The position numbers and the translations under genes were made by a program. From positions 1,056,001 to 1,120,000 of the forward strand of contig OY759599.1 in assembly GCA_963662465.1 (NCBI GenBank): DNA of 64,000 nt. The letters run 5' to 3'. Under the pieces are notes generated by a model. That model saw only the letters and a program-made list of their open reading frames with translations, did no database searches and was not told where the DNA came from. How positions within the stretch are numbered: the stretch's first letter is position 1; each line of letters starts with the position of its first letter. Below, in pieces: positions 39,421 to 55,838 of the stretch. Source of the stretch: Desulfatiglandales bacterium. GTDB taxonomy: Bacteria; Desulfobacterota; DSM-4660; Desulfatiglandales; Desulfatiglandaceae.

Positions 39421-40107
39421 TTGATGCCTGACATACTGACACTGCAAACCACTTCGGCGCACCCGACGCTGATCACCGTAATCTATATGGTAATGATGTC
39501 TTTTCTGCTGTCCGTTCTGGTGGCAATGACCTATGAAAAAACATTCCGCGGACTTTCCTATTCCAGAAATTTTGTTCAGGCTCTGGTGCTTGCTTCCATT
39601 GTGGCGGCAACCGTCATGCAGGCCATCGGCGACAGTCTGGCCAGCGGCCTTGGCATGATGGGAGCGCTGGCCATCATCCGTTTCCGTACCGGCCTGAAAG
39701 ATCCCAGAGACATTATTTTCATGTTCGCATCCCTGGCTTCCGGTATTTCCTGCGGTGTGGGGGCCTGTTATATTGCCGTTGTCGGCACCTTGGGCTTTTG
39801 CATTTCGGCCTTTATTCTATATCTTTCACCTTTCGGTCAAACGAGTTGTTTTGACGGCATGCTGCGATTTAATATGGAAAATGATGCAAAAGACAAAGGA
39901 CTTTTAGGGGATATTTTAAAAAAGAACTGTCAAAAATTCGCCCTGATCACGCTTCGGGATGCCGCTCAGGGAAAACGTCTGGACTATGCCTATCATATTA
40001 AGATGAAAAGAGGGCGGGACATGGCCCAACTGGTGGACGAGCTCAATGCCATCGCCCATATCGGAGGCGTTAACCTTCTACTTCAAGAGACAACAGTGGA
40101 ACTCTAG
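39421..40107 (+). CDS. DUF4956-family membrane protein
   Basis: YSRNFVQAL, GLGMMGALAIIRFRTGLKDPRDI motif; several TM helices plus soluble C-terminal domain. Confidence 0.8.
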   Translation: MMPDILTLQTTSAHPTLITVIYMVMMSFLLSVLVAMTYEKTFRGLSYSRNFVQALVLASIVAATVMQAIGDSLASGLGMMGALAIIRFRTGLKDPRDIIFMFASLASGISCGVGACYIAVVGTLGFCISAFILYLSPFGQTSCFDGMLRFNMENDAKDKGLLGDILKKNCQKFALITLRDAAQGKRLDYAYHIKMKRGRDMAQLVDELNAIAHIGGVNLLLQETTVEL

Positions 40108-40126
40108 TACTCCAGGGAGATCAACA

Positions 40127-42118
40127 ATGCGAAAAAGAAAATTGCTTTGGCTGGTATGGATTCTGGCATTTTTGATCATCGCCAAAATCAATATGGACGG
40201 GAGTCAGGAAAACACGGCTTTTCAGGGGATTGCCGAAAGTCGTGAGGTGATTGTCAATTCGGAGAATGCCGTTGAAATCCGCAATATCCATGTCGCACCG
40301 GGTCAGTCAATAGAAAAAGGCCGGCTGCTGGTGGCGCTGGAACGCCGGGAGCTGACGCTTAAGATCAACGAAATCTCCCACCGCCTGGAGGAACTCAAGT
40401 TGCAGGGGGGGGTAGACCGTGACGGCATTCGGTCTCAAATCGTCGAGTTCCAGGCAGAGCAAAAAATAATCATCGCCCGGGCGGATCATGAAATCAACCG
40501 GCTCCAGTCCCGATTGGCCCTGAACAAAGAACTGACCCAAGGGCTGACAAGCCTGGCGCCGGAAGACCGGAATGACAAAAAACGCAGCCCCGTTGAAACG
40601 GAAATCAAGAATCTGAAAGAGGAAAAGCGACTGAAGCGCTCACAAATTCAGTTGCGAATTAATGCGCTTAAAAAGCAGCTTTCTTCACCGGAAAAGCCGG
40701 TAGATATCAGGACACAAAGCCTGGAAAAGGAACTGGCCTTATTGCTGACGGAAAAAAAGAAGCTGCTGGTGTATGCCCAAATGGATGCCGTGGTGGGGTC
40801 GATTCTATGCAAGGTGGGGGAAAAAGTATCGCCCTTTGTTCCGATCCTGACCCTGTACCGGCCATCCCCTTCTTTTGTAAAGGCATATATCCACGAGGCC
40901 GTGCATCACAGGGCCAAAGTGGGAGAAACAGTGACGCTTGTATCCCAGAGTGGCAGAAGGAAACGCGTGACGGGGAAAATCGAGGGGACCGGTTCCCGGA
41001 TTGTGGAATACCCCGTAAGGCTCCAAAAAAGGCCCGACCTTGTGATACTGGGACGGGAGGTGGAAATCCGTCTTCCGGAGGGAAATCCGTTCCTGCTGGG
41101 AGAAAAGGTGATGGTCTATCCTTTGAAAAGGACGGAAAACCGGTATCTGGCCTGGATAAAAAAGAAAGTCAGCCCGTGGCTGGGGTTGAACCTTTTTGCG
41201 GCGGAGCCGGAAAACTCGGATCAAAAGCGAAACGTACCCGTTGATATTCAACGGTCCGCTTCCCTGAATGATATTCCCGAAATTGAGGCATCCGGCCTGA
41301 TTTACCTGCCGGATCTGAACCGCTTTCTTCTGATCAGCGATGAGACAAAACAGATGGCGCCCGTGCTTTACCTGATGGATCCCGACGGCGTTATTCGAAG
41401 CCAAACCCGAATTCGAGGGATGGATGCCATTGATGATATGGAGGCCATATGCGCGGATGCGTCCGGCAATATCTTTCTTGCCGGTTCACAGAGCCGGAAA
41501 AAGGACGGTACGCTCCCGGACAACCGAAAGATCCTGGCAAAAATCAAAAGAACCGGAACCGATTTTGAGATTTTGAAACGATGTTATCTCTTCGATCTGC
41601 TGAAAAATGCCGCCGGGAAAAATCGTGACGCACAGTGGGCCCGCTTTATCAAGAGTGGGGACATTGAAATTGAAGGGATGTTTTACGAGCAGCAGGACCT
41701 GTATCTGGGATTTAAAAAACCGCTTAAAGACGGACGGGCTGTTATATTGAGAATCAGAGAGATTGAAAAGGCCCTGGAAGAGAACCGGATTCGCCCGGAT
41801 CGGGTGGACATCCGGTGGGAATTGGACTTGCAAAGTGATGATTCCAAGAAAGGAGCGGGAATTTCAGATTTGCTCTTTCATGACAACCGGCTGTATGTGC
41901 TCTTCAGAGCGAGAAAAAAGGGCTGCCGAACAGGTATGCTGCGGATATTTGATGCGGAGGGAATCCTGATGGAAGAATACGGTTTCGGGAATCTGAATCC
42001 GGAAGGCATTGCCTTTTGTAAAGACCCCATGGATGCAAAAAAAAGGAATCTTGTGATCACTTTTGACGGCGGCGGCAAAAATCCTTCAAAAATGCTCCGG
42101 ATCGGAGTCCCGAAATGA
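40127..42118 (+). CDS. HlyD-like periplasmic adaptor fused to a C-terminal beta-propeller-like domain
   Basis: N-terminal TM; VAPGQSIEKGRLL half-lipoyl motif, long coiled coil, KVGEKVSPF; then EASGL..ISDE, DMEAI, EIEGM, NPEGI repeats; GGGAG RBS before ATG 40127. Confidence 0.75.
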   Translation: MRKRKLLWLVWILAFLIIAKINMDGSQENTAFQGIAESREVIVNSENAVEIRNIHVAPGQSIEKGRLLVALERRELTLKINEISHRLEELKLQGGVDRDGIRSQIVEFQAEQKIIIARADHEINRLQSRLALNKELTQGLTSLAPEDRNDKKRSPVETEIKNLKEEKRLKRSQIQLRINALKKQLSSPEKPVDIRTQSLEKELALLLTEKKKLLVYAQMDAVVGSILCKVGEKVSPFVPILTLYRPSPSFVKAYIHEAVHHRAKVGETVTLVSQSGRRKRVTGKIEGTGSRIVEYPVRLQKRPDLVILGREVEIRLPEGNPFLLGEKVMVYPLKRTENRYLAWIKKKVSPWLGLNLFAAEPENSDQKRNVPVDIQRSASLNDIPEIEASGLIYLPDLNRFLLISDETKQMAPVLYLMDPDGVIRSQTRIRGMDAIDDMEAICADASGNIFLAGSQSRKKDGTLPDNRKILAKIKRTGTDFEILKRCYLFDLLKNAAGKNRDAQWARFIKSGDIEIEGMFYEQQDLYLGFKKPLKDGRAVILRIREIEKALEENRIRPDRVDIRWELDLQSDDSKKGAGISDLLFHDNRLYVLFRARKKGCRTGMLRIFDAEGILMEEYGFGNLNPEGIAFCKDPMDAKKRNLVITFDGGGKNPSKMLRIGVPK

Positions 42119-43389
42119 GAATTTTTTTCTTGAGTATGTTGTGGGGTCTCTGTTTCATGCTGTTCACGCCTGTTTGTCAGTGTGAAACGCCCATTCGAAT
42201 CAGTGATTTTCTGTCCGGCGCTTCAACGGATGACTTTCTGCCGGCAGAGAAAGAGGTCCTTTCCTTTTTGGAGAAAAATCAGGACGCGCCTTTTTTGAAT
42301 GAGTTGGAATTCCGGTTGAACGTTGATGAGTTTGATTACGATCGGCAGGAGTTTGCCATCCGTTTCAAAACCCGGAGCTTTGGTGAAATGCGGGATCTCA
42401 AAAAGCTTGCCCTTGCAGGCATGGCATCCCAGGAAGCACAATACGGACTGCTGCTCCAGCGGGCCTTGAAAAGGAGATATGATATTGTTCTTGAATACCT
42501 TTACTGCCGTGAAATGATCACCGCTTATGGGGAACTGACGAAAGTGTGTGAAGATCGGCTTCATGTGCTTAAAAGGAGTTCAGAGGTTCCAGGCGTGGAT
42601 CCGTTGAAACTCAGTTATGCGCTTGTGGATGCTGAAAACGATCTACTGGATGTGGAGATGGAAACCGAAAGGTTAAAAGACCGTTCCAGGCTGATTTCCG
42701 ATGAAATCCGGAGAGATATGGGGACGAACAGCCCCATTGCCTTTGAAAATGAAAAAAGAGTGGCGATAAATGACATTACAAATGAGATTCGGCAAATTGC
42801 CGAAGTTCCGGCGGTGACAGCCGAAATTCAAAGCGCCCAAAAAAAAGCTGATCTGGCGGCGGCCCGTTATGCGCTGGAAAAATCGCGGAATGGCGCGTGG
42901 TTCAGCTTTATTGAAACCGCCTACGATCTGGAACAACGGTATGATTTTGAAAAAGCCTTTTCCATTGGATTCGGCATTACAATACCCATCGGCACAACGA
43001 GCAGGCCGGAGATGCGGGAAAAAAAGCTAAAGGAATTGAATGCCAAAAGGGTCTGCGAAATGCTCAAACAACGGAACCGGGACGAGACGCTCCGTCTTTC
43101 AAATGAGTTGCTGCACTTGATTCGCCGGTATGAACGCTTTTACGAAAAAAAGCGATCCAGCGGTGGAAAATGCCACTACGATGTCTGGCAACGCACGGAG
43201 GGAACTGATCCCATGATTTTGCTGAAAATCAGGGAATCCATGTTGAAAAAACAGATCGGGAAAACAAAGCGCCTCTTTGAAATCTTCAGGTGCTACACCA
43301 ACCTGCTGGATGTTTCCGGAAAACTGCTCGAAAAACCGTTTAGAAATTATCTGACCCATGCCCGGGAGCATTTCGAATTCCATGTCTGA
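42115..43389 (+). CDS. TolC-like outer-membrane channel candidate
   Basis: Signal peptide; two repeats of a beta-strand pair followed by long helices (FSIGFGITIPI); stop-start overlap with the HlyD-like gene. Confidence 0.55.
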   Translation: MRIFFLSMLWGLCFMLFTPVCQCETPIRISDFLSGASTDDFLPAEKEVLSFLEKNQDAPFLNELEFRLNVDEFDYDRQEFAIRFKTRSFGEMRDLKKLALAGMASQEAQYGLLLQRALKRRYDIVLEYLYCREMITAYGELTKVCEDRLHVLKRSSEVPGVDPLKLSYALVDAENDLLDVEMETERLKDRSRLISDEIRRDMGTNSPIAFENEKRVAINDITNEIRQIAEVPAVTAEIQSAQKKADLAAARYALEKSRNGAWFSFIETAYDLEQRYDFEKAFSIGFGITIPIGTTSRPEMREKKLKELNAKRVCEMLKQRNRDETLRLSNELLHLIRRYERFYEKKRSSGGKCHYDVWQRTEGTDPMILLKIRESMLKKQIGKTKRLFEIFRCYTNLLDVSGKLLEKPFRNYLTHAREHFEFHV

Positions 43390-44164
43390 GATGCCCTCCT
43401 TGCTGGAACGTTATGAGTTGAAATTCGTCATACCGGAGCGCATGGTGGATTCCATTTCCGATTTTGCTTCGGTTTATTGCAGGCCCGACCGCCATTCGGA
43501 ACAAAGCCCGGACGGATTTTATTCCGTTTACAGCCTTTATTTTGATTCCCCGGATTTTCTTTTCCTCCGAAGAAGGCAGGAGGGGGTGGCAAACCGATTC
43601 AATATGCGGGTTCGCACCTATAACAAAGACAGCGGGATGCCCTGTTTTCTCGAAGTCAAACAGAAAAGAGACGGGATCACTCGAAAATACCGGACAAAGG
43701 TTGAAGATGAAAACTGGGAGTGCATACTGGAAAGGGCGGACCGCGGATATCGGGGGGTTGGCGAAAAAGAGAATGCCGACCTTTTTGTCCGACTGGCCTG
43801 TTCCTACGGGGCTTCACCTAAGGTGCTTACCTCTTACCGCCGAAAAGCCTGGGTTTCGGTGGTGGATGACTACGCGCGTGTCACCTTTGACAGGGAACTG
43901 AGATGTCAGCCCGAAGAACGATGCATGCTTATTCCCGATTCCCGACGCATGACTGCTTATGATAACAGCACCCTGTTCGCTTCTGAATGCAGTATTGTTC
44001 TGGAACTGAAATGTTATGCCGCCAAAGTTCCCTTGTGGATGCTGGACCTGATCCGATATTTTGATCTTTGTCGGTGCAGTTTTTCAAAATATGTGAACAG
44101 CATGAGCGCCATATGGGAACAATGGGGCTACGACCGGGGAGACAGGACGGCCGCGGTACAGTGA
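43382..44164 (+). CDS. VTC-domain (polyphosphate polymerase-like, TTM fold) protein
   Basis: RYELKF, VYSLYFDS, RVRTY, FLEVKQK, YRRKAW, RVTFD, VLELK, FSKY motifs. Confidence 0.88.
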   Translation: MSEMPSLLERYELKFVIPERMVDSISDFASVYCRPDRHSEQSPDGFYSVYSLYFDSPDFLFLRRRQEGVANRFNMRVRTYNKDSGMPCFLEVKQKRDGITRKYRTKVEDENWECILERADRGYRGVGEKENADLFVRLACSYGASPKVLTSYRRKAWVSVVDDYARVTFDRELRCQPEERCMLIPDSRRMTAYDNSTLFASECSIVLELKCYAAKVPLWMLDLIRYFDLCRCSFSKYVNSMSAIWEQWGYDRGDRTAAVQ

Positions 44165-44198
44165 AACCTACGGGCTTTCTGAAAAATGAAAATTCATT

Positions 44199-44278
44199 TT
44201 TACAAAACATTTACAAAACCTTGAAAAGCTCCTGATAAAGGATTTACGAACAGATGATATATTGAGGGCAGCATGAAA
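44199..44278 (+). promoter_or_regulatory. Promoter family 1, copy 3 (upstream of first cotH)
   Basis: Identical 29-bp core plus CCTGATAAAGGATTTACGAAC. Confidence 0.75.
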
Positions 44279-44330
44279 GCGGATGCTTGGGTAACGATTC
44301 CAACAAAAAATCAAACAGGGGAGTTGAATT

Positions 44331-46361
44331 ATGGAAAGAACAAAATGGAAAGTAAAAACTTATTTTACATCTCTAAAGGTCATGGGAGCAGTTTTTTCCG
44401 TGCTGCTGCTTGTGGGGCTGTTTTACAGTCATGCGCGTGCGGCTTCGGAGGCGCCGGACATCAAACTAAACGGCATGGATGACTTGACCACCCTCGCATC
44501 TACCGACACCCTTACAGCCACCATCCAAATGGATGCGGGCGATCAGATGGGAGAACCGGCCGATTGGTGGATTGTCGCTCAAACGCCCATGGGATGGTAT
44601 TATTATGAATATCCCGACGGCTGGAATTCGGGTGGGGACGACATAGCGGATCTTAAGCCCGCTTATCAGGGCGCTCTTTTCAACCTGACGGATCCCATGG
44701 CGGTTCTGCGCGTGTCCGGACTTCCGGTGGGAAACTATGTATTCTATTTCGGGATTGACACCACGGTAAACGGTGTGATGGATGAAGGGTCCCTGGTGTA
44801 CGACCAGGTTGCTTTGCAGGTGGTGGAAGCTACAACTCCCGTTCTTTCATATATTTTTCCGGCAACGACCTATGCAGGTGCTTCCGATCAGACGCTTACC
44901 CTGTTGGGAAGCAATTTCGTGGAGGGGGCTACCGTGAATTTCAATGGTGTCAGCCGTGAAGCCACGGTTGTCAGTTCGACGCATCTCACGACCGAAATCA
45001 CGGCGGAAGAGCTGACCGATGCCGGCACGTATTCCGTCAGCGTCGCCAACGGAGGTGAAACGTCGGAGAGTCTCAATTTTACACTCCTCACCGTGACATT
45101 CGGTGAGACAGACATCGATGTTCCGGATTGGACCGCCGCGACCCATGAAAAGCTGGAGACGGAAGAGATCATCGCCAACCTGGATACGGTCTTCGATACA
45201 ACCCAGGTTCAACGCATGGATATCACCATTGACGCCGCTAACTGGAGCGTGATGCAGAGCAACCTGGCCGGCCTCAAAGCGCAAGTCGGGGGATCAACTG
45301 ATTTTTCATTGATGGATGATCCCATCGATGTTCCTTGTGATATCGAATACAACGGCAAGCAATGGTATCGGGTCGGTATCCGCTTCAAGGGCAATTCCAG
45401 TCTTTATGGCGCCAACAGCAACAAACTGCCTTTTAAACTCAACTTCGATAAATTCGAGGATATTTATCCGGCCATCAACAACCAGCGCTTCTATGGGTTT
45501 AAAAAGTTCAGTCTCAAAAATAACTGCAAGGACGCGTCGGAAATCCACGAATTGACGGCATCTGAACTTTTCCGTGATTTCGGCCTGAAAAGCTCCCATA
45601 CCGCTTTTTACAAGCTCTATGTGGATGTAGGCGGCGGGCCTGTTTATTTTGGGCTTTATACCCTGGTGGAGGAAGTGGACGACACCGTCATTAAAACCCA
45701 ATACAACGATAACGACGGCAATCTCTACAAGCCCGAGGAGGATGCGGCGACCTTCGCAACGGGCACTTTCAACACCTATGAATTTAGCAAGAAGACCAAT
45801 GAGAGCGATTTGGACTACAGCGATGTACAGGCGCTTTATGATGCTCTGAACTCCGATCTTCGCGTAACGGATCCAAGCACCTGGAAAACCAACCTTGAGG
45901 CAATTTTGGATGTTCCCGTCTTCCTCAAATGGTTTGCGGCGAATAATGTGCTCCAGAATTGGGACACCTATGGCGTCATGCCCCACAACTATTATCTGTA
46001 TCGGAATCCTGACACCCAGCTTTTCGAATGGATACCCTGGGACAACAACGAAGCCCTCGAACGGCGCTGCCTGAGTCTGGACGCGTCGGAAGTGACATCC
46101 CAATGGCCGCTGCTCCGCTACCTGCTGGATGATTCGGATTACGCGGAACAGTACCGGCAAAACGTGCATGAATTCGCCGAAAGCCTTTTCAATGCCACGC
46201 GGATGGCGCCTCTTTATGATGCCCTGGCGGCCTTGATAGAGGATGCGGTCCTGAGCGAAACCGCGGGCTATACCTTCACATCACCCAGGCAATTTTCCGA
46301 GGCTATCTCCACGCTGAAGGCCCATGTTACGGCTCGCGAGACGGCGGCTCTGGCATTTTAG
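44331..46361 (+). CDS. cotH: Secreted CotH-family kinase (N-terminal module A + IPT/TIG-like + CotH)
   Basis: Signal peptide; VGIRFKGNSS, KLPFKLNFD, GLYTLVEEVD, GNLYKP, WDTY..HNYYLY, WIPWDNNE. Confidence 0.88.
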   Translation: MERTKWKVKTYFTSLKVMGAVFSVLLLVGLFYSHARAASEAPDIKLNGMDDLTTLASTDTLTATIQMDAGDQMGEPADWWIVAQTPMGWYYYEYPDGWNSGGDDIADLKPAYQGALFNLTDPMAVLRVSGLPVGNYVFYFGIDTTVNGVMDEGSLVYDQVALQVVEATTPVLSYIFPATTYAGASDQTLTLLGSNFVEGATVNFNGVSREATVVSSTHLTTEITAEELTDAGTYSVSVANGGETSESLNFTLLTVTFGETDIDVPDWTAATHEKLETEEIIANLDTVFDTTQVQRMDITIDAANWSVMQSNLAGLKAQVGGSTDFSLMDDPIDVPCDIEYNGKQWYRVGIRFKGNSSLYGANSNKLPFKLNFDKFEDIYPAINNQRFYGFKKFSLKNNCKDASEIHELTASELFRDFGLKSSHTAFYKLYVDVGGGPVYFGLYTLVEEVDDTVIKTQYNDNDGNLYKPEEDAATFATGTFNTYEFSKKTNESDLDYSDVQALYDALNSDLRVTDPSTWKTNLEAILDVPVFLKWFAANNVLQNWDTYGVMPHNYYLYRNPDTQLFEWIPWDNNEALERRCLSLDASEVTSQWPLLRYLLDDSDYAEQYRQNVHEFAESLFNATRMAPLYDALAALIEDAVLSETAGYTFTSPRQFSEAISTLKAHVTARETAALAF

Positions 46362-46381
46362 ACTGACCGGGCGGCTTTGGT

Positions 46382-46412
46382 CATCGTTCCCACGCGGAGC
46401 GTGGGAACGATG
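46382..46412. repeat. REP-like palindrome, may also act as an RNA hairpin between genes
   Basis: CATCGTTCCCACGC-GGA-GCGTGGGAACGATG, 14-bp perfect stem. Confidence 0.75.
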
Positions 46413-46479
46413 CGCCTGACAATGAAAGCGGATCCTGAGTGACGATATCTTTGGAAACCATAAAAAGGGGTTGGATTGA

Positions 46480-48057
46480 ATGATGGAAAAGAGAAGATCG
46501 AAATCAAAAGCTTATTGTTCATCCGTAAACCTCATGGCCGCAATATTTTCCATACTGCTGCTATTGGGGCTCTTTCACTGCCATTCGTGGGCCGCCTCGG
46601 CGGCGCCGGATATCAAAGTGAACGGCGTGGATGAATTGACCACCCTCACAACCACCAGCACCCTCACGGCGACCATCCAAATGGACGCCGGAGAACAGAC
46701 CGGAGAGCAGGCCGACTGGTGGATTGTCGCTGAAACGCCCATGGGGTGGTATTATTATGGATATCCCGACGGATGGTATTTGGGTGGAAACGGCATAGAA
46801 GATCTTAAGCCTGCTTACCAGGGTTCCCTTTTCAAGCTGACGGATCCCCTGGAGGTATTGCGGATATCAGCGCTTCCGGTCGGAGATTATGTGTTTTATT
46901 TCGCTGTGGACACGACGGTAAACGGTGTGGTGGATGAAGGGGGGCTATCCTACGACCTGGTTGCCTTCGAGGTGGTGGAAGCGATGGAAACCGTATCCTA
47001 CCCCGTGGTGGATACCGGCCAGACCGCCTGTTATGATGATAATGGAGACGAAATCAGCTGCCCTGAATCGGGTGATGCTTTTGCCGGCCAGGATGCCCAG
47101 CATGAGGGCTTTCAGTTCAGCTACACCGACAATGGCAATGGCGCCATTACCGATAATGTCACCGGCCTGATGTGGCAGCAGACCCCCGGTAATAGGGGCT
47201 TAAGTCGGCAAGAGGCGGTTGACTATTGTGAATCCCTGGAACTGGCGGGCTTTGATGACTGGCGCATACCCACCTTGAAGGAGTTGTTTTCCATCAGTGA
47301 CTTTTCAAAAGGATGGCCCTATTTGAATACGGACTATTTCGATCTGGCCGGAACAAGCGTCAGTAAAGATGAACAATATTGGGCGGATTCTTACGTGGGC
47401 ATGACCGTAGAGGGTGGCTCGGAAGCAGCTTTCGGCGTGAATCACGGCACGGGTCATATCAAGGCTTATCCGGCCAAGGTCTCCGGTCCCATGGGAAATT
47501 ATGTGCGTGCCGTTCGCGGAAACACGTATGGCGTCAATGAATTCGTGGACAATGGCGACGGCACCATCACCGACAATGCCACGGGGTTGATGTGGCAACA
47601 GGCGGACAGCGGCAGCGGCATGGATTGGGAAGATGCCCTGGCTTACGCCGAGAGTGCCACGCTGGCTGGGTACAATGACTGGCGTCTGCCCAATATCAAG
47701 GAACTCCAGAGCATCGTCGATTACACCCATTCCCCCAGTGCAAGCGAGGCGGCCAACCTTGGACCCGCCATTGATACGGATTATTTCCAAATCACCGAAC
47801 TTCCCTCCGGCACGACGAACACCACCACCGATTATGGCTACTTCTGGAGCAGCACGAGCGCCTATTTCGGTGGGGACAGTCCTGAATATTACTATGCCTG
47901 GTATGTGGCCTTTGGAACCGCAGTGGACGGTAATGGTGATGATTTTCATGGCGCCGGCGCCGTCCGATTTGACACAAAGGCCGAAGACGGACCTCTGGGA
48001 GAAGGCGGTGAGCGGTATTACAATTATGTCCGCCTGGTGCGCGACGCGAACAATTAA
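46480..48057 (+). CDS. Secreted protein: module A + two DUF1566/Lcl C-terminal domains
   Basis: VVDTGQTACY; 2x DNGxGxITDNxTGLMWQQ..DWRxPxxKEL; C-terminal YVRLVR. Confidence 0.88.
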   Translation: MMEKRRSKSKAYCSSVNLMAAIFSILLLLGLFHCHSWAASAAPDIKVNGVDELTTLTTTSTLTATIQMDAGEQTGEQADWWIVAETPMGWYYYGYPDGWYLGGNGIEDLKPAYQGSLFKLTDPLEVLRISALPVGDYVFYFAVDTTVNGVVDEGGLSYDLVAFEVVEAMETVSYPVVDTGQTACYDDNGDEISCPESGDAFAGQDAQHEGFQFSYTDNGNGAITDNVTGLMWQQTPGNRGLSRQEAVDYCESLELAGFDDWRIPTLKELFSISDFSKGWPYLNTDYFDLAGTSVSKDEQYWADSYVGMTVEGGSEAAFGVNHGTGHIKAYPAKVSGPMGNYVRAVRGNTYGVNEFVDNGDGTITDNATGLMWQQADSGSGMDWEDALAYAESATLAGYNDWRLPNIKELQSIVDYTHSPSASEAANLGPAIDTDYFQITELPSGTTNTTTDYGYFWSSTSAYFGGDSPEYYYAWYVAFGTAVDGNGDDFHGAGAVRFDTKAEDGPLGEGGERYYNYVRLVRDANN

Positions 48058-48100
48058 AGGAACAAACCGGTATTGACAACCCATAAAAGGAGATAAAACC

Positions 48101-48382
48101 ATGAAGACCATTAAAAAAATCGCTATCGCAGGTGTGATATTCAGCTTGTGTACCGTAAACGCATTTGGAGCGGATACTGAAAAACAGCGGCCTGGGGGAC
48201 GACATCAGGGGCCGCCGCCGGAGGCCTACACCGCCTGCGAAGACAAAGCCGCGGGCGATACGGCTGAGTTTGTAAGCCCCCATGGGGATACGGTAACGGG
48301 CGTTTGTGAACAGGAAGGCGATCGGATGGTCCTGCGCCCTGATAATCCGCCTCCTGACAACAGGGAAAAGGGGAAGAACTGA
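48101..48382 (+). CDS. Small exported protein with GPPPEA..C..C motif
   Basis: AAGGAG RBS; signal peptide; two Cys in the mature part. Confidence 0.75.
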   Translation: MKTIKKIAIAGVIFSLCTVNAFGADTEKQRPGGRHQGPPPEAYTACEDKAAGDTAEFVSPHGDTVTGVCEQEGDRMVLRPDNPPPDNREKGKN

Positions 48383-48589: not shown

Positions 48590-48714
48590 TTTCCCGCATG
48601 ACCGACGCATCGGACGGCGTTCCTCAAAATGTTTGACAGGGTACGGCGAAGAAGGTTGTCAACACCCCAGATGGAAGCATCGTCAACCACACGCTTCAGA
48701 ATCTTCACCTCCTC
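48590..48714 (-). pseudogene. Histidine kinase N-box fragment joined to promoter family 1 copy 4
   Basis: LLRRTLSNILRNAVRCVGHAG resembles LLRRALSNVLRNAVRYAGHEG of 28935..30482. Confidence 0.7.
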
Positions 48715-48795
48715 TTTACAAAACATTTACAAAACCTTGAAAAGACCCTGATAAAGGATTTACGAACAAATGACACATTGAAGGCAGCATGAAAA
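48715..48795 (+). promoter_or_regulatory. Promoter family 1, copy 4 (upstream of second cotH)
   Basis: Identical 29-bp core plus CCTGATAAAGGATTTACGAAC. Confidence 0.75.
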
Positions 48796-48847
48796 TGGAT
48801 ACTTGGGTAACGATTCCAACAAAAAAATTAAACAGGGGGATTGAATC

Positions 48848-50845
48848 ATGGAAAAGACAAGATGGAAAGCAAAAGCTTATTATGCTCCTGTAAACGCCAT
48901 GGCTGCCATATTTTCCGTGCTATTGCTGTTGGGTGTGCTCTACAGCCATTCCTGGGCCGCTTCGGCGGCGCCGGATATCAAACTGATGCGCGACGCAAGC
49001 AGCACGGAATCTACGGATATCTATATAAACCAAAATGACGGCAACTGCGGTGAAAAGAGTCCTTGTTATTCAACCATTCAGGCTGGGATTGATGCCGCCA
49101 ACGATGCGTCGACGGTAAACATCGCTCAGGGGACCTATACCGAATCGTTGTCTCTTAACTCGCCGAAAACCATAACGCTGAAGGGCGGATGGAATGATGA
49201 CTTTTCGGCGCAGGAAAACATCACCGTGATCCAGGCCCCAAAGGTCGGCAATGGTGGTACACTCAAGATGCGGGATATCGTTATCAGGCCGGTGGTGGAA
49301 GCCACACCCGTTCTTTCATACCTTTTTCCGGCAACAACCTATGCAGGCGCTTCCGATCAGACACTTACCCTGTTGGGAAGCAATTTCGTGGAGGGGGCTA
49401 CTGTTAATTTCAACGGTGTCAGTCGTGAAACCACGCTTGTCAGCGCTACTCATCTTACGACCGAAATAACGGCGACGGAATTGGCCAATGCCGGTACTTA
49501 TTCCGTGAGCGTCACCAACCCCGGGGCCGGCGGTAAAACCTCCGGCAGTCTGAATTTCACACTACTCGCCTTGACATTCGGTGAAACGGATATTTCGACG
49601 CCGGATTGGACCGCCGCCACCCATGAAAAACTGGACGCGGAAGAGATCATGGCCAACATGGATACGGTCTTCGATACAGCCCAGGTTCAACGCATGGATA
49701 TTACCATCGACGCCGCTAACTGGAGCGTGATGCAAAGCAACCTGGCCGATCTCAAAGCGCAACTGGGGGGATCAAATGATTTTTCATTGATGGATGATCC
49801 CATCGATGTGCCTTGTGATATCGAGTACAACGGCAAGCAATGGTATCGGGTCGGTATCCGGTTCAAGGGGAATTCCAGTCTTTATAGTGCCAACAGCAAC
49901 AAACTCCCTTTTAAACTCAATTTCGATAAATTCGAGGATATTTATCCCCCCATCAAAAACCAGCGATTCTATGGATTTAAAAAGTTTAGTCTTAAGAGCA
50001 ATTACAAGGACGAGTCGGAAATCCACGAATTGACGGCATCCGAACTCTACCGTGATTTTGGCCTGAAAAGCTCACATGCCGCTTTCTACAAGCTCTATGT
50101 GGATGTAGGTGGCGGGCCTGTTTACTTCGGGCTTTATACCCTGGTGGAGGAAGTGGACGACACCGTCATTAAAACCCAGTACAACGATAACGACGGCAAC
50201 CTTTACAAGCCCGAGGAGGATGCGGCGACCTTCGCAACCGGAACTTTCAACACCTATGAATTTGCCAAGAAGACCAATGAGAGCGACTTGGACTACAGCG
50301 ATGTGCAGGCGCTTTATGATGTTCTGAACTCCGATCTTCGCGTGACGGATGCAGGCGCCTGGAAAACCAACCTTGAGATGATTTTGGACGTTCCCGTTTT
50401 CCTCAAATGGTTTGCGGCGAATAATGTACTCCAGAATTGGGACACCTATGGCGTCATGCCCCATAACTATTACCTGTACCGTAATCCCGACACCCAGCGC
50501 TTCGAATGGATCCCCTGGGATAACAACGAAGCTCTGGTTTCCAACCCGCGTTGTCTGAGTCTGAACGCATCGGAAGTGACATCCCAGTGGCCGATTCTCC
50601 GCTACCTGCTGGATGATTCTGCTTATGCGGAACAGTACCGACAAAACGTGCATGAATTCGCTACCAACCTGTTCAATGCCACGCGGATGGCGTCTCTTTA
50701 TGATGCCCGGGCGGCCTTGATAGAGGATGCCGTCCTGAGCGAAAGTGCGGACTATACCTTCACATCACGCAGGCAATTTTCCGAGGCTATCTCCGCTCTG
50801 AAGGCCCATGTTGCGGCCCGTGAGACGGCGGCTTTGGCATATTAG
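48848..50845 (+). CDS. cotH: Secreted CotH-family kinase, paralogue with a different N-terminal module
   Basis: Near-identical to 44331..46361 after VVEA; N-module CGEKSPCYSTIQAGIDAA..IAQGTYTE..LKGGWN. Confidence 0.88.
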   Translation: MEKTRWKAKAYYAPVNAMAAIFSVLLLLGVLYSHSWAASAAPDIKLMRDASSTESTDIYINQNDGNCGEKSPCYSTIQAGIDAANDASTVNIAQGTYTESLSLNSPKTITLKGGWNDDFSAQENITVIQAPKVGNGGTLKMRDIVIRPVVEATPVLSYLFPATTYAGASDQTLTLLGSNFVEGATVNFNGVSRETTLVSATHLTTEITATELANAGTYSVSVTNPGAGGKTSGSLNFTLLALTFGETDISTPDWTAATHEKLDAEEIMANMDTVFDTAQVQRMDITIDAANWSVMQSNLADLKAQLGGSNDFSLMDDPIDVPCDIEYNGKQWYRVGIRFKGNSSLYSANSNKLPFKLNFDKFEDIYPPIKNQRFYGFKKFSLKSNYKDESEIHELTASELYRDFGLKSSHAAFYKLYVDVGGGPVYFGLYTLVEEVDDTVIKTQYNDNDGNLYKPEEDAATFATGTFNTYEFAKKTNESDLDYSDVQALYDVLNSDLRVTDAGAWKTNLEMILDVPVFLKWFAANNVLQNWDTYGVMPHNYYLYRNPDTQRFEWIPWDNNEALVSNPRCLSLNASEVTSQWPILRYLLDDSAYAEQYRQNVHEFATNLFNATRMASLYDARAALIEDAVLSESADYTFTSRRQFSEAISALKAHVAARETAALAY

Positions 50846-50936
50846 ACTGCCCGGACGGCCTTGATGATTGCCATCATATGCCTGCATATTTTGGCTGAAA
50901 ACATTGATTTTGTGAAAACTGGGCTAAGGAGAAGAA

Positions 50937-51809
50937 ATGGAACTTACGAAAACCCTTAATTTAGGTGAAATTATTTTACTCCTATTCATCCTCTCAACAT
51001 CCATGTTTTTGACAGCCTGCGAAGAGGAGGATGTGAAAACGCTCAGTTCACAGCGGGATCGTGAGATCCTCATCGATGGAAAGGATCCGGAGTGGCAGGG
51101 CGTTATGCAATATTATGATGAAAAATCGAGAACCGTGGTCAGTTTCCTTCACGATGAAAAATATTTGTTCATGAGACTTGCTTCAAACGATCGCAACATC
51201 CAGCGACAGATTCTGGTGCAGGGTCTTACCGTGTGGTTTGAACAACCCCATGAAGGGAATCGAAAAACAGGCGTCCATTTTCCGGTGGGCCTTCCCCGCG
51301 AAAAGAGAATGTCAATGTTTCAGAGACCGCCGGAAGAAGAAACAAGAACAGAAAAAGATCCTAAAAACAGAGATGATGGTTTGCTTGAAAAAGGCCTGGT
51401 TGAAATTCAGTTATGGGGACCGGGAGAATATGAGCAAAAAACAATGCCATTCAAAGAAATGGAAAAGTTTGATGTGGCGGTAAAAATCGGCAAGACGGAA
51501 AAAAACCTCATATACGAACTCAAGTTGCCGTTTACCCAAAGCGATATGAGCCGGTTTGGGCTGTTAAAGCCGGGCAAAAAAGGGATTCGGGTGGGTTTTC
51601 AGACCGGTGATGGTGAAGAAAAGAAGGGAAGATCCATGGACACCCAACCCTCCAATGGCAAACAACGCTCCGAAGGTCGCGGGGGACGTGGGATGGGGGG
51701 CGGCATGAAAGGGGGTGCGCCGGATCGAAAAGAGGGGAAACCCGAAGGCCGGCGGATCGAACCACTGGAACTGTGGGTGACGTTAACATTTGCCGAAAAT
51801 GGAGATTAA
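50937..51809 (+). CDS. Hypothetical lipoprotein with Gly/Arg-rich C-terminal segment
   Basis: AAGGAG RBS; lipobox FLTAC; IDGKDPEW motif. Confidence 0.75.
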   Translation: MELTKTLNLGEIILLLFILSTSMFLTACEEEDVKTLSSQRDREILIDGKDPEWQGVMQYYDEKSRTVVSFLHDEKYLFMRLASNDRNIQRQILVQGLTVWFEQPHEGNRKTGVHFPVGLPREKRMSMFQRPPEEETRTEKDPKNRDDGLLEKGLVEIQLWGPGEYEQKTMPFKEMEKFDVAVKIGKTEKNLIYELKLPFTQSDMSRFGLLKPGKKGIRVGFQTGDGEEKKGRSMDTQPSNGKQRSEGRGGRGMGGGMKGGAPDRKEGKPEGRRIEPLELWVTLTFAENGD

Positions 51810-51898
51810 ACAAGCCATCGGAATCAACACAAACGGATCTGAAATACACAGTCGATATGCGGAAAACGAGACCCATTTTACAACAACAAAGCAAACAG

Positions 51899-52016
51899 TT
51901 TTACAAAAGCTTAACAATTTTTTTCGGAATCAACAAAATTCCTTTACATTCATTGTTTATATTACAGTCAAAACTGCGGGGGATCGTCCCCCGGGAAACA
52001 GCAACCCAAATAAACC
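51899..52016 (+). promoter_or_regulatory. Promoter family 2 plus conserved leader hairpin, upstream of the Spy-like gene
   Basis: Matches reverse complements of 35216-35280 and 53651-53769; GGGGGA-TCG-TCCCCC hairpin then GGGAAACAGCAA. Confidence 0.65.
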
Positions 52017-52029
52017 AAGGAGGTACATC

Positions 52030-52572
52030 ATGACTTCGAGACTCGGAAAAAAAATCGGTACGGGGATAATGGCTTTTCTATTCACAATATGCTTTATTCC
52101 CGCAATTTCGGGGGCATTCGCACCTGGAGACGGAAGACAAGAGAGTGGGTTTCACAGGAGCGGCCATCGCGGGCCAGGTCTGGGAATCTGGCGGGATTCG
52201 CGAATGGTTCAAAAACTGGGCCTTACGCCGGATCAGGTCAAACAGATTCGGGATGCGGATTTTACCTTCCGTGAAAAGCATCTGGTCTTGAAAGCACAAC
52301 TCGACGGCTTGCGATTGCAAATGGATAAGGCCTTTTCCCAAGATGTCGTTGACGATAAAGCCGTCCTTAAAACGGCGCAAACAATTTCAGAGGTAAAAGG
52401 AAAACTGTTTGTCAGGGAAATAGAAGCCCTTCTAACCCTTGGGAAAATTCTAAATGCGGATCAAATCAAAAAGCTGAAGTTCTATGACATGCCTCAGAAA
52501 GGGAAAGGGCTGACGCAGTGTCTAAAACAACTCTCAGACCGTCGTTTTATGGAAAAAGTTGACGATCTGTAG
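52030..52572 (+). CDS. Spy/CpxP/ZraP-like periplasmic helical protein
   Basis: AAGGAGG RBS; signal peptide; KLGLTPDQ..ILNADQ paired LTxxQ-like motifs. Confidence 0.78.
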   Translation: MTSRLGKKIGTGIMAFLFTICFIPAISGAFAPGDGRQESGFHRSGHRGPGLGIWRDSRMVQKLGLTPDQVKQIRDADFTFREKHLVLKAQLDGLRLQMDKAFSQDVVDDKAVLKTAQTISEVKGKLFVREIEALLTLGKILNADQIKKLKFYDMPQKGKGLTQCLKQLSDRRFMEKVDDL

Positions 52573-52622
52573 TTCATTGGGCCGAATTTGAAAAGGTCAA
52601 CGCTGATAAAGGAGAAAAAACA

Positions 52623-52850
52623 ATGAAAGGCAAGGCAAGACGCATCTTAGACGTCTGGGGTTACTATCGCCTCTCAACCCTACTCCTGCTGATGATCATC
52701 TTTTTGGTTTTTGCGGGGTTTGTATGTTCATCAGCCAGCGGGGCCGGCTTTGACAGGGGTCTCCAGCCAGGATGTTCGGCCATGGGACCAGATTACATCC
52801 CGTCCGGGACACGGGTATCGGACCTATGGCATACTCCCATACCTTTTTAA
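52623..52850 (+). CDS. Small hypothetical membrane protein (possibly a remnant)
   Basis: AAGGAG RBS; one hydrophobic segment. Confidence 0.4.
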   Translation: MKGKARRILDVWGYYRLSTLLLLMIIFLVFAGFVCSSASGAGFDRGLQPGCSAMGPDYIPSGTRVSDLWHTPIPF

Positions 52851-53036
52851 AGAAGTTCAGATCGATAATTTGGGTAGTCCCTGTAGAACAGTGCATGTCA
52901 ATAATTTCAGCATGTTGCATATGATGTCTGCTGGCAGATCTTGACACAAAATCAGGCGTTTGCAAGGTAATGCGGGGCAAGTACCTCCACCAACCTGCAT
53001 TGCTTTGTAGGGACTACCGAATTGTTGAAAAGGCCG

Positions 53037-53228
53037 ACACAAGGGTGAAACATGGAGAAACCAAAGTCGTCAAACATGAAAATTCTGATTGTCGATGATG
53101 ATAAAAGACTGTGCGGACTACCTGGAGCCCATGGGGTATGAGGTAAAAAAAGCCCACAACGGGCAGGATCGGCGCAAGCTCGGGGAAAATCCCCGCTACC
53201 CCGGATTCATTCAAACAGTCAGAAGCGA
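53037..53228 (+). pseudogene. Collapsed remnant of the 31429..32178 response regulator
   Basis: 5' part (ATGAAAATTCTGATTGTCGATGATGATAAAAGACTGTGCGGACT..) joined to the 3' part (CGGCGCAAGCTCGGGGAAAATCCCCGC..CAGAAGCG) with a large internal deletion. Confidence 0.85.
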
Positions 53229-53615
53229 AAGAATCTCTTTCAATTCATTTCCCATCAGGGGTTTCATGATCACGGCCTTAATGCCCATTTGCGCGGCCTC
53301 TTCTTTGGAAAAATTGATGTCGGATCCCGTACACATGATAATAGGTATGCTTTTTCGGATCTTCACGATTTCGAGAGCCAGCCGGTCCCCCGTCATGATC
53401 GGCATATTCATATCGGTGATGACCAGATTAAAATCGAACCGTTTTCGTTGGAAATGATCCAAAGCCTCCATTGGATCTGTTTGGAAATCGACCTGATATC
53501 CCAAATGCTCAAGCATTTCGCATGCCACATTTCCAACCATCCAATCGTCGTCTACCAAGAGAATTTTCTTCCTGCCGTTTGAGGATTTCCGTGCCTTCTT
53601 TTTGCAAGGATACAT
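53211..53615 (-). CDS. Stand-alone receiver domain protein (resembles the C-terminus of hybrid kinases)
   Basis: ILLVDDD, VITDMNMP, IIMCTG, IMKP. Confidence 0.75.
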   Translation of the reverse strand: MYPCKKKARKSSNGRKKILLVDDDWMVGNVACEMLEHLGYQVDFQTDPMEALDHFQRKRFDFNLVITDMNMPIMTGDRLALEIVKIRKSIPIIMCTGSDINFSKEEAAQMGIKAVIMKPLMGNELKEILSLLTV

Positions 53616-53650
53616 CCGTTGTTTCCCCCATGTTGATGGTGTATTTCAGA

Positions 53651-53769
53651 TTAATTATTTTTGCTTGCTGTTTCCCAGGGGGATTATTCCCCGGAGCTTC
53701 GCATGTAATATAGCAGGGGAATGTAAAGGGATTTTGTTGATCACGTTAAGCTTTTGTAAAATTGTAAAG
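53651..53769 (-). promoter_or_regulatory. Promoter family 2 plus leader hairpin copy
   Basis: Reverse complement TTTTACAAAAGCTTAAC..CAACAAAATCCCTTTACATTC..GGGGAATAATCCCCCTGGGAAACAGCAA; also matches 32176-32248. Confidence 0.65.
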
Positions 53770-53779
53770 TAGACGAGAT

Positions 53780-53905
53780 GGGTCCCTTATGACCGGCGCA
53801 TTGGACGGCGTTTCTCAAAACGTTTGAAAGTGCCCGGCGAAGAAGGTTGTCAACGGCCTAGACGGAAATATTGTCAACCACACGGTTCAGAATCTTCACC
53901 TCCTC
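53780..53905 (-). pseudogene. Second copy of the histidine kinase N-box fragment joined to promoter family 1
   Basis: Highly similar to 48590-48714 with the same junction TTCAGAATCTTCACCTCCTC-TTTAC. Confidence 0.7.
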
Positions 53906-53975
53906 TTTACAAAACATTTACAAAACCTTGAAAAATCCCTCAAAAGGATTTTACAAACAAGTGATAGGTTGAATC
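53906..53975 (+). promoter_or_regulatory. Promoter family 1, copy 5 (upstream of EF-hand gene)
   Basis: Identical 29-bp core. Confidence 0.75.
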
Positions 53976-54038
53976 GAAACGGTGAAGGTGTTTCGAATAA
54001 CGGTGGTCATCAAACAAAAAGGAATGGAAGGAAGTTTT

Positions 54039-54482
54039 ATGATGGGAAAGATAAAATTGATATTAAATGTCCTGTGTTTTACCGTCATAACAATGAATTC
54101 CGCATTTGCCTTGGAGAGCGCTGGGGAAAATTCTTCACAGAGCATGATTGAACGTCATGACCGGGATGGCGACAACAGGGTATCCATGGAAGAATTCCCA
54201 GGTCCGGATGATCATTTCATCCGCATGGATCTGGACGGCGATGGCTTCATCAATCAGGAAGAAGCCCGACAGGCCCCTCGACCTGACGGGCAGGAAGGCC
54301 GCGTACCAGGCAAATTCACGGAAGATGATGGCGATGGAGACGGGGTTGTTTCCCGCACCGAGTTCTCGGGGCCGGCCGATCATTTTGACCGACTGGATTT
54401 GAATGGAGATGGCGCCATCCAGGAAAGCGAAGCGCGGCAGAGTCCTCCCGGCATGGCACGCTCAAACCAAAGGAATCGGTGA
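54039..54482 (+). CDS. Exported EF-hand calcium-binding protein (4 loops)
   Basis: DRDGDNRVSMEE, DLDGDGFINQEE, DGDGDGVVSRTE, DLNGDGAIQESE; signal peptide. Confidence 0.85.
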   Translation: MMGKIKLILNVLCFTVITMNSAFALESAGENSSQSMIERHDRDGDNRVSMEEFPGPDDHFIRMDLDGDGFINQEEARQAPRPDGQEGRVPGKFTEDDGDGDGVVSRTEFSGPADHFDRLDLNGDGAIQESEARQSPPGMARSNQRNR

Positions 54483-55174
54483 ACGAATCCATGAGCCAAA
54501 AAACGGTTTTATTAATTGCCGGGACCACGGAAATCTATTTAGACTTAAAGCATATTTTGGAACGGGACCATGTCCTCATCCGTCGGATTGAACGCTGGGA
54601 GAGCAAACAATCCCTTTCCGAAACCGACGGCCCTCAGCTGATTGTGCTCTATTGCTCCGGATCGGGAGTGGACGGGCTGAACGTATGTCAGGAGATCCGT
54701 GGGCGATATTCGGGGCTTCTGGTTCTTGTTTCAGAATACAGAGACGAACAGTTTCATGTCCTTGCATTGGGTTTGGGCGCGGATGCCTCTCTCCCCGCAT
54801 CAGCAGGTGCGCCGCTGGTGGCGGCAAATATCAGAGCGTTGTTGCGACGGTTTGTGCCTGCCGGACCTTCGTCGGTGCTGATTTTCGGCGAGTTGATGGT
54901 CAATGCCAACAGGCGGGATGTCTTTGTGGCGGGTCGGGCGGTACAGCTTTCCACCATCGAATTTCAACTTTTCTGGTGTCTTTGCCAAAAACCCGGGCTT
55001 GTGGTCACCCGCGATGAAATTTTCCTCGAAATTTATCACGCGGCCTATAACGGATACGACCGCAATATTGATCTGTATGTGTCACGAATCCGGCAGAAAA
55101 TCGGGGATGACCCCACGTTCCCCCGTTACTTGAAAACCGTCCGCGGTGTCGGGTATCAATTTGTGGGGGAGTAG
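54479..55174 (+). CDS. Atypical OmpR/RstA-like regulator with degenerate receiver
   Basis: Intact winged helix (YNGYDRNIDLYVSRIRQKIGDD..LKTVRGVGY); receiver lacks the acidic pair, phospho-Asp (LIVLY) and conserved Lys. Confidence 0.8.
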   Translation: MNESMSQKTVLLIAGTTEIYLDLKHILERDHVLIRRIERWESKQSLSETDGPQLIVLYCSGSGVDGLNVCQEIRGRYSGLLVLVSEYRDEQFHVLALGLGADASLPASAGAPLVAANIRALLRRFVPAGPSSVLIFGELMVNANRRDVFVAGRAVQLSTIEFQLFWCLCQKPGLVVTRDEIFLEIYHAAYNGYDRNIDLYVSRIRQKIGDDPTFPRYLKTVRGVGYQFVGE

Positions 55175-55361
55175 CTCCGGCAGACTGTCGGCCAATTTCA
55201 AAATCGTTTCCCGGGAAATCAGATCACACCATGATACAAATTGTTACCTCCCAGTGACAATACCGCTATAAAGTATCCGTTAAACAGGACGATATAAAAA
55301 ACATGGAAAGACGGTCTATCAATTAAGACTCACCCAAAAAATAATTTCAAGGAGGTCAAAC

Positions 55362-55838
55362 ATGATCAATAGTATCGACAGCACAAACAGCACCATGTCC
55401 ATGATGCGCAGTGGTTCCATGGAAAGGCATCAGCCGCCTCCGGGCAAAGATGTTTTCCAAACGACGGACTCAGATCGAGACGGTCTGGTTTCCAGGTCCG
55501 AACTTGAGACCCTGGCGAAGGGCATTGAGGAAATTACCGGGTCCAGTATCGACGTTGATGAAGCGCTCAGCAGTTTTGATGCCGATGAGGATGGGGCCTT
55601 AAGCGGTGAGGAGTTGAAGGAATTTATGGAGAACAACGGATTTGCTCCACCTGGGATGTTCCAGAATGATAAAGGAGAAGCCGTGAGGATGCTGCCACCG
55701 CCTCCGCCCTCTTCTGAACATGCGATTTCGGCCTATGACGATAATTCAGGAGAAGATCAAATAGAGCAATTGATCGCGTTGTTGAAGGAGCAGAATGGTG
55801 ATAGCTGGGAAGTCTCTTCCGTTGATGTTACCGCTTGA
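55362..55838 (+). CDS. EF-hand domain protein with Pro-rich segments
   Basis: AAGGAGG RBS; DSDRDGLVSRSE and DADEDGALSGEE loops. Confidence 0.82.
   Translation: MINSIDSTNSTMSMMRSGSMERHQPPPGKDVFQTTDSDRDGLVSRSELETLAKGIEEITGSSIDVDEALSSFDADEDGALSGEELKEFMENNGFAPPGMFQNDKGEAVRMLPPPPPSSEHAISAYDDNSGEDQIEQLIALLKEQNGDSWEVSSVDVTA

Follow-up and report, generated by a model that had tools for sequence, protein, structure and literature searches.

What does an outer-membrane duct carry when the operon that encodes it holds a polymerase-like enzyme in place of a pump? This question is raised by a gene cassette of a Desulfatiglandales bacterium, located in a stretch of 64,000 nucleotides (contig OY759599.1, positions 1,056,001 to 1,120,000; hereafter the window) of a genome that consists of a single contig of 8.16 Mb and is rated 100% complete. 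Four intact genes on the plus strand at 39421-44164 encode a DUF4956 membrane protein, a HlyD-type adaptor, a TolC-fold protein, and a VTC-domain enzyme, and no ABC or RND gene lies within 39421-55838. The original prediction, made from the DNA letters, had described this pump-less operon, and the family and fold matches given below uphold it. It had further proposed that VTC and DUF4956 synthesize and translocate polyphosphate into an HlyD/TolC conduit, and that the exported polymer either is taken as phosphoryl donor by exported CotH kinases or binds Ca and metals at the surface; this overall interpretation is partly supported by our sequence comparisons.

Bacterial polyphosphate is ascribed to the cytoplasmic enzymes PPK1 and PPK2, and its way outside the cell is an open question. 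We tentatively propose, with somewhat less than even confidence, that VTC and DUF4956 make polyphosphate and pass it through the adaptor and the TolC-type duct.

The four core proteins

The DUF4956 gene (39421/39424..40107; 227 aa; PF16316, E = 1.6e-10) is separated by 19 nt from the adaptor gene (40127..42118), and the adaptor, TolC-like (42115..43389), and VTC (43358/43382..44164, the longest open reading frame starting at 43358; PF09359, E = 2e-41) genes overlap successively at their stop/start codons. By tblastn, the genome has only one copy of each core gene. A family scan of 28 window proteins, both flanks of the cassette included, showed that the operon encodes no pump of the RND, ABC, or MFS type and found no glycosyltransferase or pel-type match among the proteins scanned.

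The VTC protein has no membrane segment by hydropathy and no SPX hit in the family scan, and as a single sequence it matched nothing meaningful in the PDB. When a profile of 101 homologues (93 close ones and eight from fetched loci) was used, all ten PDB matches were Vtc4, Vtc3, and Vtc2 chains (best E = 9e-18). The named homologues belong to Desulfobacterota, Planctomycetes, and Calditrichaeota. In the alignment to 8i6v_E, Vtc4 residues R264, R266, K281, Y359, R361, E426, S457, and K458 correspond to R84, R86, K101, Y160, R162, E216, S243, and K244, and the equivalent of K200 is K22, by motif only. The equivalents of these nine catalytic residues, which the accessible part of a cryo-EM preprint on VTC gives as required for synthesis (10.1101/2023.01.27.525886), are kept in 100-101 of the 101 homologues. 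They include the equivalent of K458, the residue that tells active Vtc4 from the inactive Vtc2 and Vtc3, both reported to lack it (10.1101/2023.01.27.525886). The positions of Vtc4 K428, R373, and (by motif) R196 are also basic in the window enzyme, in which R18 and K218 stand in for two hydrolase glutamates; tunnel enzymes that hydrolyse are described as having an acidic patch or glutamates at positions that are basic in Vtc4 (PMC4641920, seen in part). Apart from a glutamate, E20, discussed below, the residues of the enzyme resemble those of a polymerase more than those of a hydrolase.

Among the cassette genes, that of DUF4956 is conserved best, with 65-89% identity over most of the best 120 matches. 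Averaged hydropathy and charge gave about five helices, four of them by hydropathy and a glycine-rich fifth from the alignment. Its loops 36-49 and 86-97 are basic, the intervening alternate loops are uncharged, and R86-x-R88 is invariant in 69 of 69 sequences, six distant homologues among them. The C-terminus is a soluble domain, which in the streptococcal homologue is reported to be ACT-like (PMC12345266). DUF4956 is proposed here as the translocase subunit; by analogy, its basic loops may be likened to the basic rings reported at the channel mouth of yeast VTC (10.1101/2023.01.27.525886).

The adaptor is of the HlyD/EmrA type over residues 1 to ~340 and has an N-terminal membrane anchor. 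Its matches to NCBIfam MdtN (the best, E = 3e-12) and EmrA (E = 3e-10) and to the HlyD models all lie below the cut-offs, and the homologue at locus L021 passes those of HlyD_D23 and HlyD_3. The barrel domain carries a basic loop, EYPxRLxKRP, that recurs in five of the seven aligned homologues besides the window's own. Although the HlyD-type call of the original prediction stands, it had overlooked a C-terminal domain of 290 residues (~372-663) that resembles DUF3616, phytase-like, and SdiA-regulated proteins, and that we call propeller-type from this family likeness. Because the domain is missing in L023 and L026 and stands as its own gene beside VTC, DUF4956, and CotH in L029, we regard it, from gene content, as a recurring but optional member of the cassette. 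A 337-aa protein of L029 was rejected as an adaptor since its match covers the propeller part alone.

The protein encoded by 42115-43389 has no Pfam or NCBIfam match, its profile found nothing meaningful among PDB sequences, and a model built without an alignment was unusable (pLDDT 42.8). Its homologue in the nearest named relative, a Desulfatiglandales assembly, is 98% identical, and a search of 50%-identity representatives gave 639 relatives with E values of at most 0.001; relatives include Bacteroidota. An alignment-based AlphaFold model using 141 relatives reached pLDDT 95.5 and has a hairpin plus long-helix layout repeated twice. The top Foldseek matches of this model are TolC, OprM, OprN, CmeC, and VceC (E = 2e-11 to 4e-9, TM ~0.6), and PF02321 was matched in 19 of 40 scanned relatives. 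The model, the Foldseek matches, and the PF02321 relatives exclude a fold other than TolC, on which the predicted conduit depended.

At a mean identity of 22%, the duct homologues keep R67 in 135 of 141 cases and R83, as R or K, in 139. Both residues are on the polar side of the strands that form the barrel, and in a trimer of the modelled protein they would form a basic ring, although E65 (116 of 141) could turn them into a structural salt bridge. Along the proposed path, conserved basic residues occur in the DUF4956 loops, in the adaptor loop, and on the polar side of the duct's barrel strands.

CotH linkage and gene neighbourhoods

Two exported kinase-like proteins are encoded on the plus strand beyond the core: CotH 1 (44331..46361; Pfam E = 7e-63), with a signal segment, an IPT/TIG domain, and the CotH domain, and CotH 2 (48848..50845; E = 2e-60), with an N-terminal domain unlike that of CotH 1. 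Both start with a hydrophobic N-terminal segment, and CotH 2 is a recent paralogue of CotH 1 (88.6% DNA identity over 1581 nt). Against PDB 5jd9 (E = 1e-15), the NWD and PWD motifs align to D224 and D247 with an equal spacing of 23 residues; these correspond to D228 and D251 in Bacillus subtilis numbering, as mapped by spacing. The window proteins thus share both catalytic aspartate equivalents with the CotH kinases of Bacillus (5jd9; PMC7821199), but they are exported multidomain proteins of a double-membraned, non-Bacillus cell. The domains at 44331-44850, 46480-47000, and 49000-49300 have no Pfam names; residues 43-143 of CotH 1 and of the Lcl protein encoded between the two CotH genes have about four tblastn matches elsewhere in the genome, and residues 55-148 of CotH 2 have about 20, which suggests that these are shuffled surface-protein modules.

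We surveyed 301 genomes of the phylum and read all 16 of their VTC loci. VTC and CotH were each found in 14 genomes and together in 10, where 0.65 would be expected if they were independent, kinship among genomes inflating this test. CotH lies within 0.5-4.3 kb of VTC at 12 of the 16 loci, namely at every locus in the genomes that carry both. DUF4956 adjoins VTC at 12 of the 16 as well; of the other four loci, three are near contig ends and one is that of genome G291. The TolC-like profile matched 54 genomes, five of them strongly (E < 1e-126) and the others at 3e-12 or weaker. All five strong matches adjoin VTC, as does a sixth, weaker OEP match (E = 1e-11), which supports a dedicated TolC subfamily found beside VTC and the adaptor. 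No pump appeared among the neighbours listed or scanned at L002, L020-L023, and L026, although an unlinked pump may be used. The cassette is distributed patchily, like an accessory island, judging from VTC in 11 of 209 genomes of the class and in three of ten of its own genus.

The missing PPK1 and PPK2 of this genome, and the missing PPK1 of five other cassette genomes, were not counted as support because this is the background state, PPK1 being present in just 27 of the 301 genomes. Metatranscriptome contigs from one study (three runs), mostly 90-99% identical to the core genes, were also left unused, since contigs cannot show transcription.

Other outer-membrane genes stand beside VTC-DUF4956 at some loci: an OprO/P phosphate-selective porin at L030 (E = 4e-50) and a barrel at L028, L046, L047, and L048 (weak Pfam matches) and at L049 (by gene order). 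The VTC-DUF4956-barrel set of L028 and L046-L049 is mostly accompanied by Cthe_2159, with no CotH match nearby; Cthe_2159 may be an alternative partner outside. At L030 (4055-11748, genome G181), VTC, a thymidylate-kinase-like protein of 597 aa, DUF4956, CotH, and a lamin-tail protein lie divergent from the porin gene. At L029 (1926-10331, G206), one run comprises the genes of VTC, DUF4956, the propeller-type domain as a separate protein, CotH, and a tyrosine-phosphatase-family protein of 1204 aa, and a 4.2-kb contig (L024, G036:C113) holds a tandem pair of VTC-domain genes.

Single-protein scans of genome and metagenome contigs yielded two loci each; outside the phylum, we read three records of Gram-positive bacteria from a plasmid collection. 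A Planococcus plasmid carries VTC-DUF4956 with CotH and a family-2 glycosyltransferase, Paenibacillus (L053) carries VTC-DUF4956 followed by Cthe_2159 with no CotH match nearby, and Nonomuraea carries VTC and CotH.

The genes for CotH, polyphosphate polymerase, and DUF4956 are known as pel accessory genes in streptococci, clostridia, and bifidobacteria (PMC7112168); in Streptococcus intermedius the triad is SIR_1592-1594 (PMC12345266). The accessible text of the pel-gene authors reports it as not found outside pel loci. By gene content it does occur outside them, since loci of this phylum and of the Gram-positive plasmids carry it. The original prediction knew of no functional description of the module in bacteria, and this holds in part: the triad and its deletion phenotypes are published (PMC7112168, PMC12345266), whereas VTC joined to an adaptor and TolC was not found in the literature searched, a coverage that stops short of subscription papers and supplements. 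In the accessible parts of other sources, DUF4956 appears in transcriptome papers as table entries only, and VTC is treated in eukaryotes (PMC10657179).

Proposed mechanism and competing explanations

As its conserved residues imply, the cytoplasmic VTC enzyme would transfer the gamma-phosphate of ATP onto a growing polyphosphate chain. It would dock on a DUF4956 oligomer, whose basic cytoplasmic loops would pull the chain into a membrane pore, and the adaptor would span the periplasm to the duct, whose fold is modelled and whose assembly with the adaptor is presumed. Chain growth would replace the missing pump as the driving force. The polymer would then reach the surface or the outside, where the propeller-type domain and exported CotH may bind or use it. 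An OmpR-family two-component system would turn on the cassette together with Spy-like, EF-hand, and MacAB-type genes, most likely under envelope or metal stress. The weakest step, speculative and in our view doubtful, is that exported CotH uses polyphosphate as phosphoryl donor. A complex prediction for three DUF4956 chains with VTC gave scores of 0.26 and 0.06, short of the mark of 0.32, and was used neither way.

The closest known system is the yeast VTC complex (Vtc4/Vtc3/Vtc1; PDB 3g3q, 7ytj, 8i6v), which belongs to the same tunnel family, whose catalytic residues the window enzyme keeps, and with which we propose a common logic, synthesis coupled to membrane passage. Unlike it, the window VTC is a lone soluble domain without SPX, membrane part, or Vtc1-type three-helix domain, its DUF4956 partner has no detectable Vtc1 likeness, and an adaptor and a TolC duct are added. 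The pel accessory cluster has the same three families, but here the cell is double-membraned and the adaptor and TolC genes are within the operon. Tripartite efflux and type I systems (AcrAB-TolC, MacAB-TolC, EmrAB-TolC) share the anchored HlyD/EmrA-type adaptor and the TolC-fold duct; in the window, in contrast, the pump is replaced by an enzyme together with a membrane protein of 227 aa, and the adaptor has an extra propeller-type domain. The cassette would work like a yeast VTC complex placed on a TolC duct, but it departs from both the VTC complex and tripartite efflux in a defining feature, so we class the architecture as new in kind, with a predicted function. At its fullest, the proposal is a new class of exporter driven by an enzyme: a VTC polymerase would thread polyphosphate through DUF4956 as the channel and then through the adaptor and TolC, CotH at the surface would use it instead of ATP on surface proteins or glycans, and the VTC-DUF4956 core would act likewise, without a duct, in single-membrane bacteria; this we hold with low confidence.

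Published deletions bear on export in both directions. In S. intermedius, strains deleted for DUF4956 or CotH lost more than half of their aggregation in sputum medium (PMC12345266), which by analogy is a phenotype outside the cell and counts for export. A number of points weigh against it. The VTC deletion is reported without any phenotype, and the DUF4956 and CotH deletions shifted Pel oppositely, one to more and one to less (PMC12345266, seen in part); this pattern fits poorly with one linear pathway. The authors of the S. intermedius preprint suggest that polyphosphate stays cytoplasmic and, in the accessible text, describe MgtC as a regulator, not a transporter; the DUF4956 homologue at L030 weakly matches MgtC (PF02308, E = 4e-6). 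Characterised CotH is reported to use ATP (PMC7821199). The DUF4956 profile found no likeness in the PDB to Vtc1, to any Vtc chain, or to a solved channel. E20 of the VTC enzyme, kept in 100 of 101 homologues, is likely the second-metal glutamate of hydrolases, its position being presumed from the ExExK motif, since the printed alignment ended short of that strand. Vtc4 is described as lacking this glutamate (PMC4641920), which the bacterial enzymes thus probably keep. In the survey, four of the 14 CotH genomes have no VTC match (two of the four are less than 90% complete), and G291 has VTC without CotH and without a DUF4956 match in its genome. The adaptor and TolC are present at just six of the 16 VTC loci, and L025, L027, L029, L032, and L033 carry CotH with no outer-membrane gene.

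A somewhat unlikely alternative is that VTC makes or trims cytoplasmic polyphosphate, DUF4956 is an MgtC-like regulator, and the adaptor and duct serve a pump encoded elsewhere, for CotH-related proteins or another solute, all linked as a stress regulon. The weak MgtC link of DUF4956 and the streptococcal deletion pattern (PMC12345266) would suit it, as would the promoter boxes that the Spy-like and EF-hand genes and a MacAB-TolC-type operon have in common, and the presence in G123 of CotH, Lcl, EF-hand, and two-component genes where the core is missing. The layout of MgtC, a membrane part plus an ACT domain, is indeed similar to that of DUF4956, but the window protein gave no MgtC match in the Pfam scan, has the invariant basic RFR loop, and lies beside VTC, as in all DUF4956 loci read. 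Against this alternative, the strong matches of the duct subfamily occur only beside VTC (five of five), the adaptor, TolC-like, and VTC genes overlap at stop/start codons, and the nearby ABC exporter brings its own adaptor and duct. The CotH proteins, for their part, have ordinary N-terminal signal segments.

The same machine might instead carry another cargo, with VTC yielding or passing a short donor (tripolyphosphate, pyrophosphate, or a nucleotide) for CotH acting on surface proteins or polysaccharide, and no long polymer outside. We consider this quite unlikely. The tight CotH-VTC linkage, the kept catalytic aspartates of CotH, the kept E20 of VTC, and the polysaccharide genes that adjoin the triad, those of pel operons and the family-2 glycosyltransferase gene on the Planococcus plasmid, are consistent with it. 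Against it, VTC-DUF4956 is paired with Cthe_2159, and no CotH match lies nearby, at L028, L046, L048, and L053 and, judging from gene order, at L049; the K458 equivalent and the basic residues at the exit also speak for a polymerase. Uptake, in which external polyphosphate or organic phosphate would be bound or cut and enter through an outer-membrane channel and DUF4956 for VTC to hydrolyse or to make nucleotide triphosphate, is very improbable: the OprO/P porin at L030, the PstS-like gene upstream at L020, the tyrosine-phosphatase-family gene at L029, and the phytase-like match of the propeller-type domain favour it, but adaptor/TolC pairs are established export ducts, the two pstS-like genes of the genome lie outside the 14 box-pattern sites, and the VTC tunnel residues are polymerase-like.

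If polyphosphate export by VTC and DUF4956 is true, bacteria would have a second type of polyphosphate synthase with a dedicated export route, and TolC ducts a new kind of inner-membrane partner. DUF4956 and many proteins annotated as 'polyphosphate polymerase domain' would gain a function. It would also possibly explain what powers exported CotH kinases, that is, kinase chemistry outside the cytoplasm. The PPK-independent extracellular polyphosphate reported for Bacillus cereus is a separate case, as the accessible part of that preprint gives no Vtc4 homologue there (PMC13484657, 2026).

Promoter boxes and neighbouring genes

The repeat TTTACAA-N4-TTTACAA occurs exactly six times in the 8.16-Mb genome, five of them in the window (31256, 39315, 44199, 48715, and 53906), against an expectation of 0.12 per spacing; the other 11 spacings tested gave 0-1. 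On the plus strand, the box at 39315..39332, of 11-bp period, lies 109 nt upstream of the DUF4956 ATG, and copies precede CotH 1 (44199..44216), CotH 2 (48715..48732), and an EF-hand/regulator gene pair (53906..53923). A variant, TTTACAA-N4-TTAACAA, precedes the Spy-like gene (51900..51917), and another, on the minus strand at ~53745-53765, lies upstream of a lone receiver gene. The shared promoter boxes of the original prediction are thus real and rare, but since the five window boxes are copies of one duplicated promoter piece of 68-93 nt (77-90% identical), they are not independent sites, and the second EF-hand gene has none.

Direct repeats with an 11-bp period fit regulators of the OmpR family, and the boxes are likely sites for one. 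Candidate regulators are the two-component genes at 28935..35176 (family scan), which comprise two sensor kinases, one of them BaeS-like, and three regulators; the box at 31256 precedes the regulator gene 31429-32178, and a variant at 35279 precedes the BaeS-like kinase gene. Directly behind this kinase lies a regulator (32208-33590, minus strand) with a BaeR-like receiver, an adenylate/guanylate cyclase, and a TolB-like/FlgT-like tail but no DNA-binding domain, conserved in a related genome at L002 (8852-10225).

Spy is an envelope-stress target. Just beyond the window end, a variant box precedes the genes of a MacAB-TolC-type ABC exporter that is complete, adaptor and duct included (G000:C1 1119849-1124580, minus strand; also L051 14089-18820). 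In the sister genome G430, the same operon, identified there by Pfam, lies behind a Spy-like gene and adjoins the EF-hand gene, and in G206, of another family, the Spy-like homologue heads the cassette with a similar box upstream. A reading of the boxes as Pho boxes was rejected: the pstS-like genes (G000:C1 5185165 and 5996303) lie away from all 14 sites of the looser pattern TT[TA]ACA-N5-TT[TA]ACA, so the cassette is apparently not in the phosphate-starvation regulon. The looser pattern is not enriched genome-wide, with 14 sites at spacing 5 and 29 at spacing 4.

All genes named by the original prediction are present and intact on the plus strand; its list had omitted two response regulators and a secreted protein of 93 aa. 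The Lcl_C gene (46480..48057; formerly named DUF1566) encodes an exported accessory protein whose first 170 residues are in common with CotH 1. It is followed by the gene of the 93-aa protein (48101..48382), which has a GPPP motif and no Pfam hit and adjoins the cassette in L002 too. Beyond CotH 2 lie genes for a lipoprotein-like accessory protein (50937..51809; LTAC at residues 25-28, no family hit) and a Spy/CpxP-like periplasmic protein (52030..52572; Metal_resist E = 0.002, below cut-off). The stand-alone receiver-domain protein (53211..53615, minus strand) was identified by family scan. The boxed pair consists of an exported EF-hand protein (54039..54482; family scan and signal segment) and an OmpR-family response regulator (54479..55174; best NCBIfam match RstA, below cut-off). 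The second EF-hand protein (55362..55838) has no hydrophobic signal segment; XopAW and lanmodulin were not adopted as EF-hand identities, their matches being far below cut-off.

The original prediction had taken everything up to 55838 as one system. The core is linked with CotH, but Lcl and EF-hand are separable from the core, because in G123 (96% complete) close homologues of CotH, Lcl, and EF-hand adjoin a two-component pair although the genome has no VTC or DUF4956 match; the sister locus L001, 98% identical, lacks most of Lcl. From this gene content, we consider the machine to be the four core genes with CotH as their usual companion, and Lcl, EF-hand, and Spy-like genes to be separable, variable, co-regulated neighbours.

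The island also contains decayed copies. A third CotH copy (55931..56209, plus strand) is a fragment with 88% DNA identity over 194 nt, and 53019-53227 holds remnants of the regulator gene 31429-32178 (87% over 161 nt of the 5' region, 95% over 58 nt near the 3' end). The latter appears to be a deleted duplicate, and by sequence likeness the two together show recent duplication and decay. Divergent from the cassette, 35899-38781 (minus strand) encodes a 960-aa surface protein with a beta-helix, Listeria-Bacteroides repeats, BACON, and an IPTL-CTERM sorting signal. Farther upstream, a redox cluster at 12486-24609 contains two glycine-cleavage-H proteins, one of them fused to a 1282-aa Fe-S/flavin oxidoreductase, adjoined by NuoF-like and HdrA-like genes.

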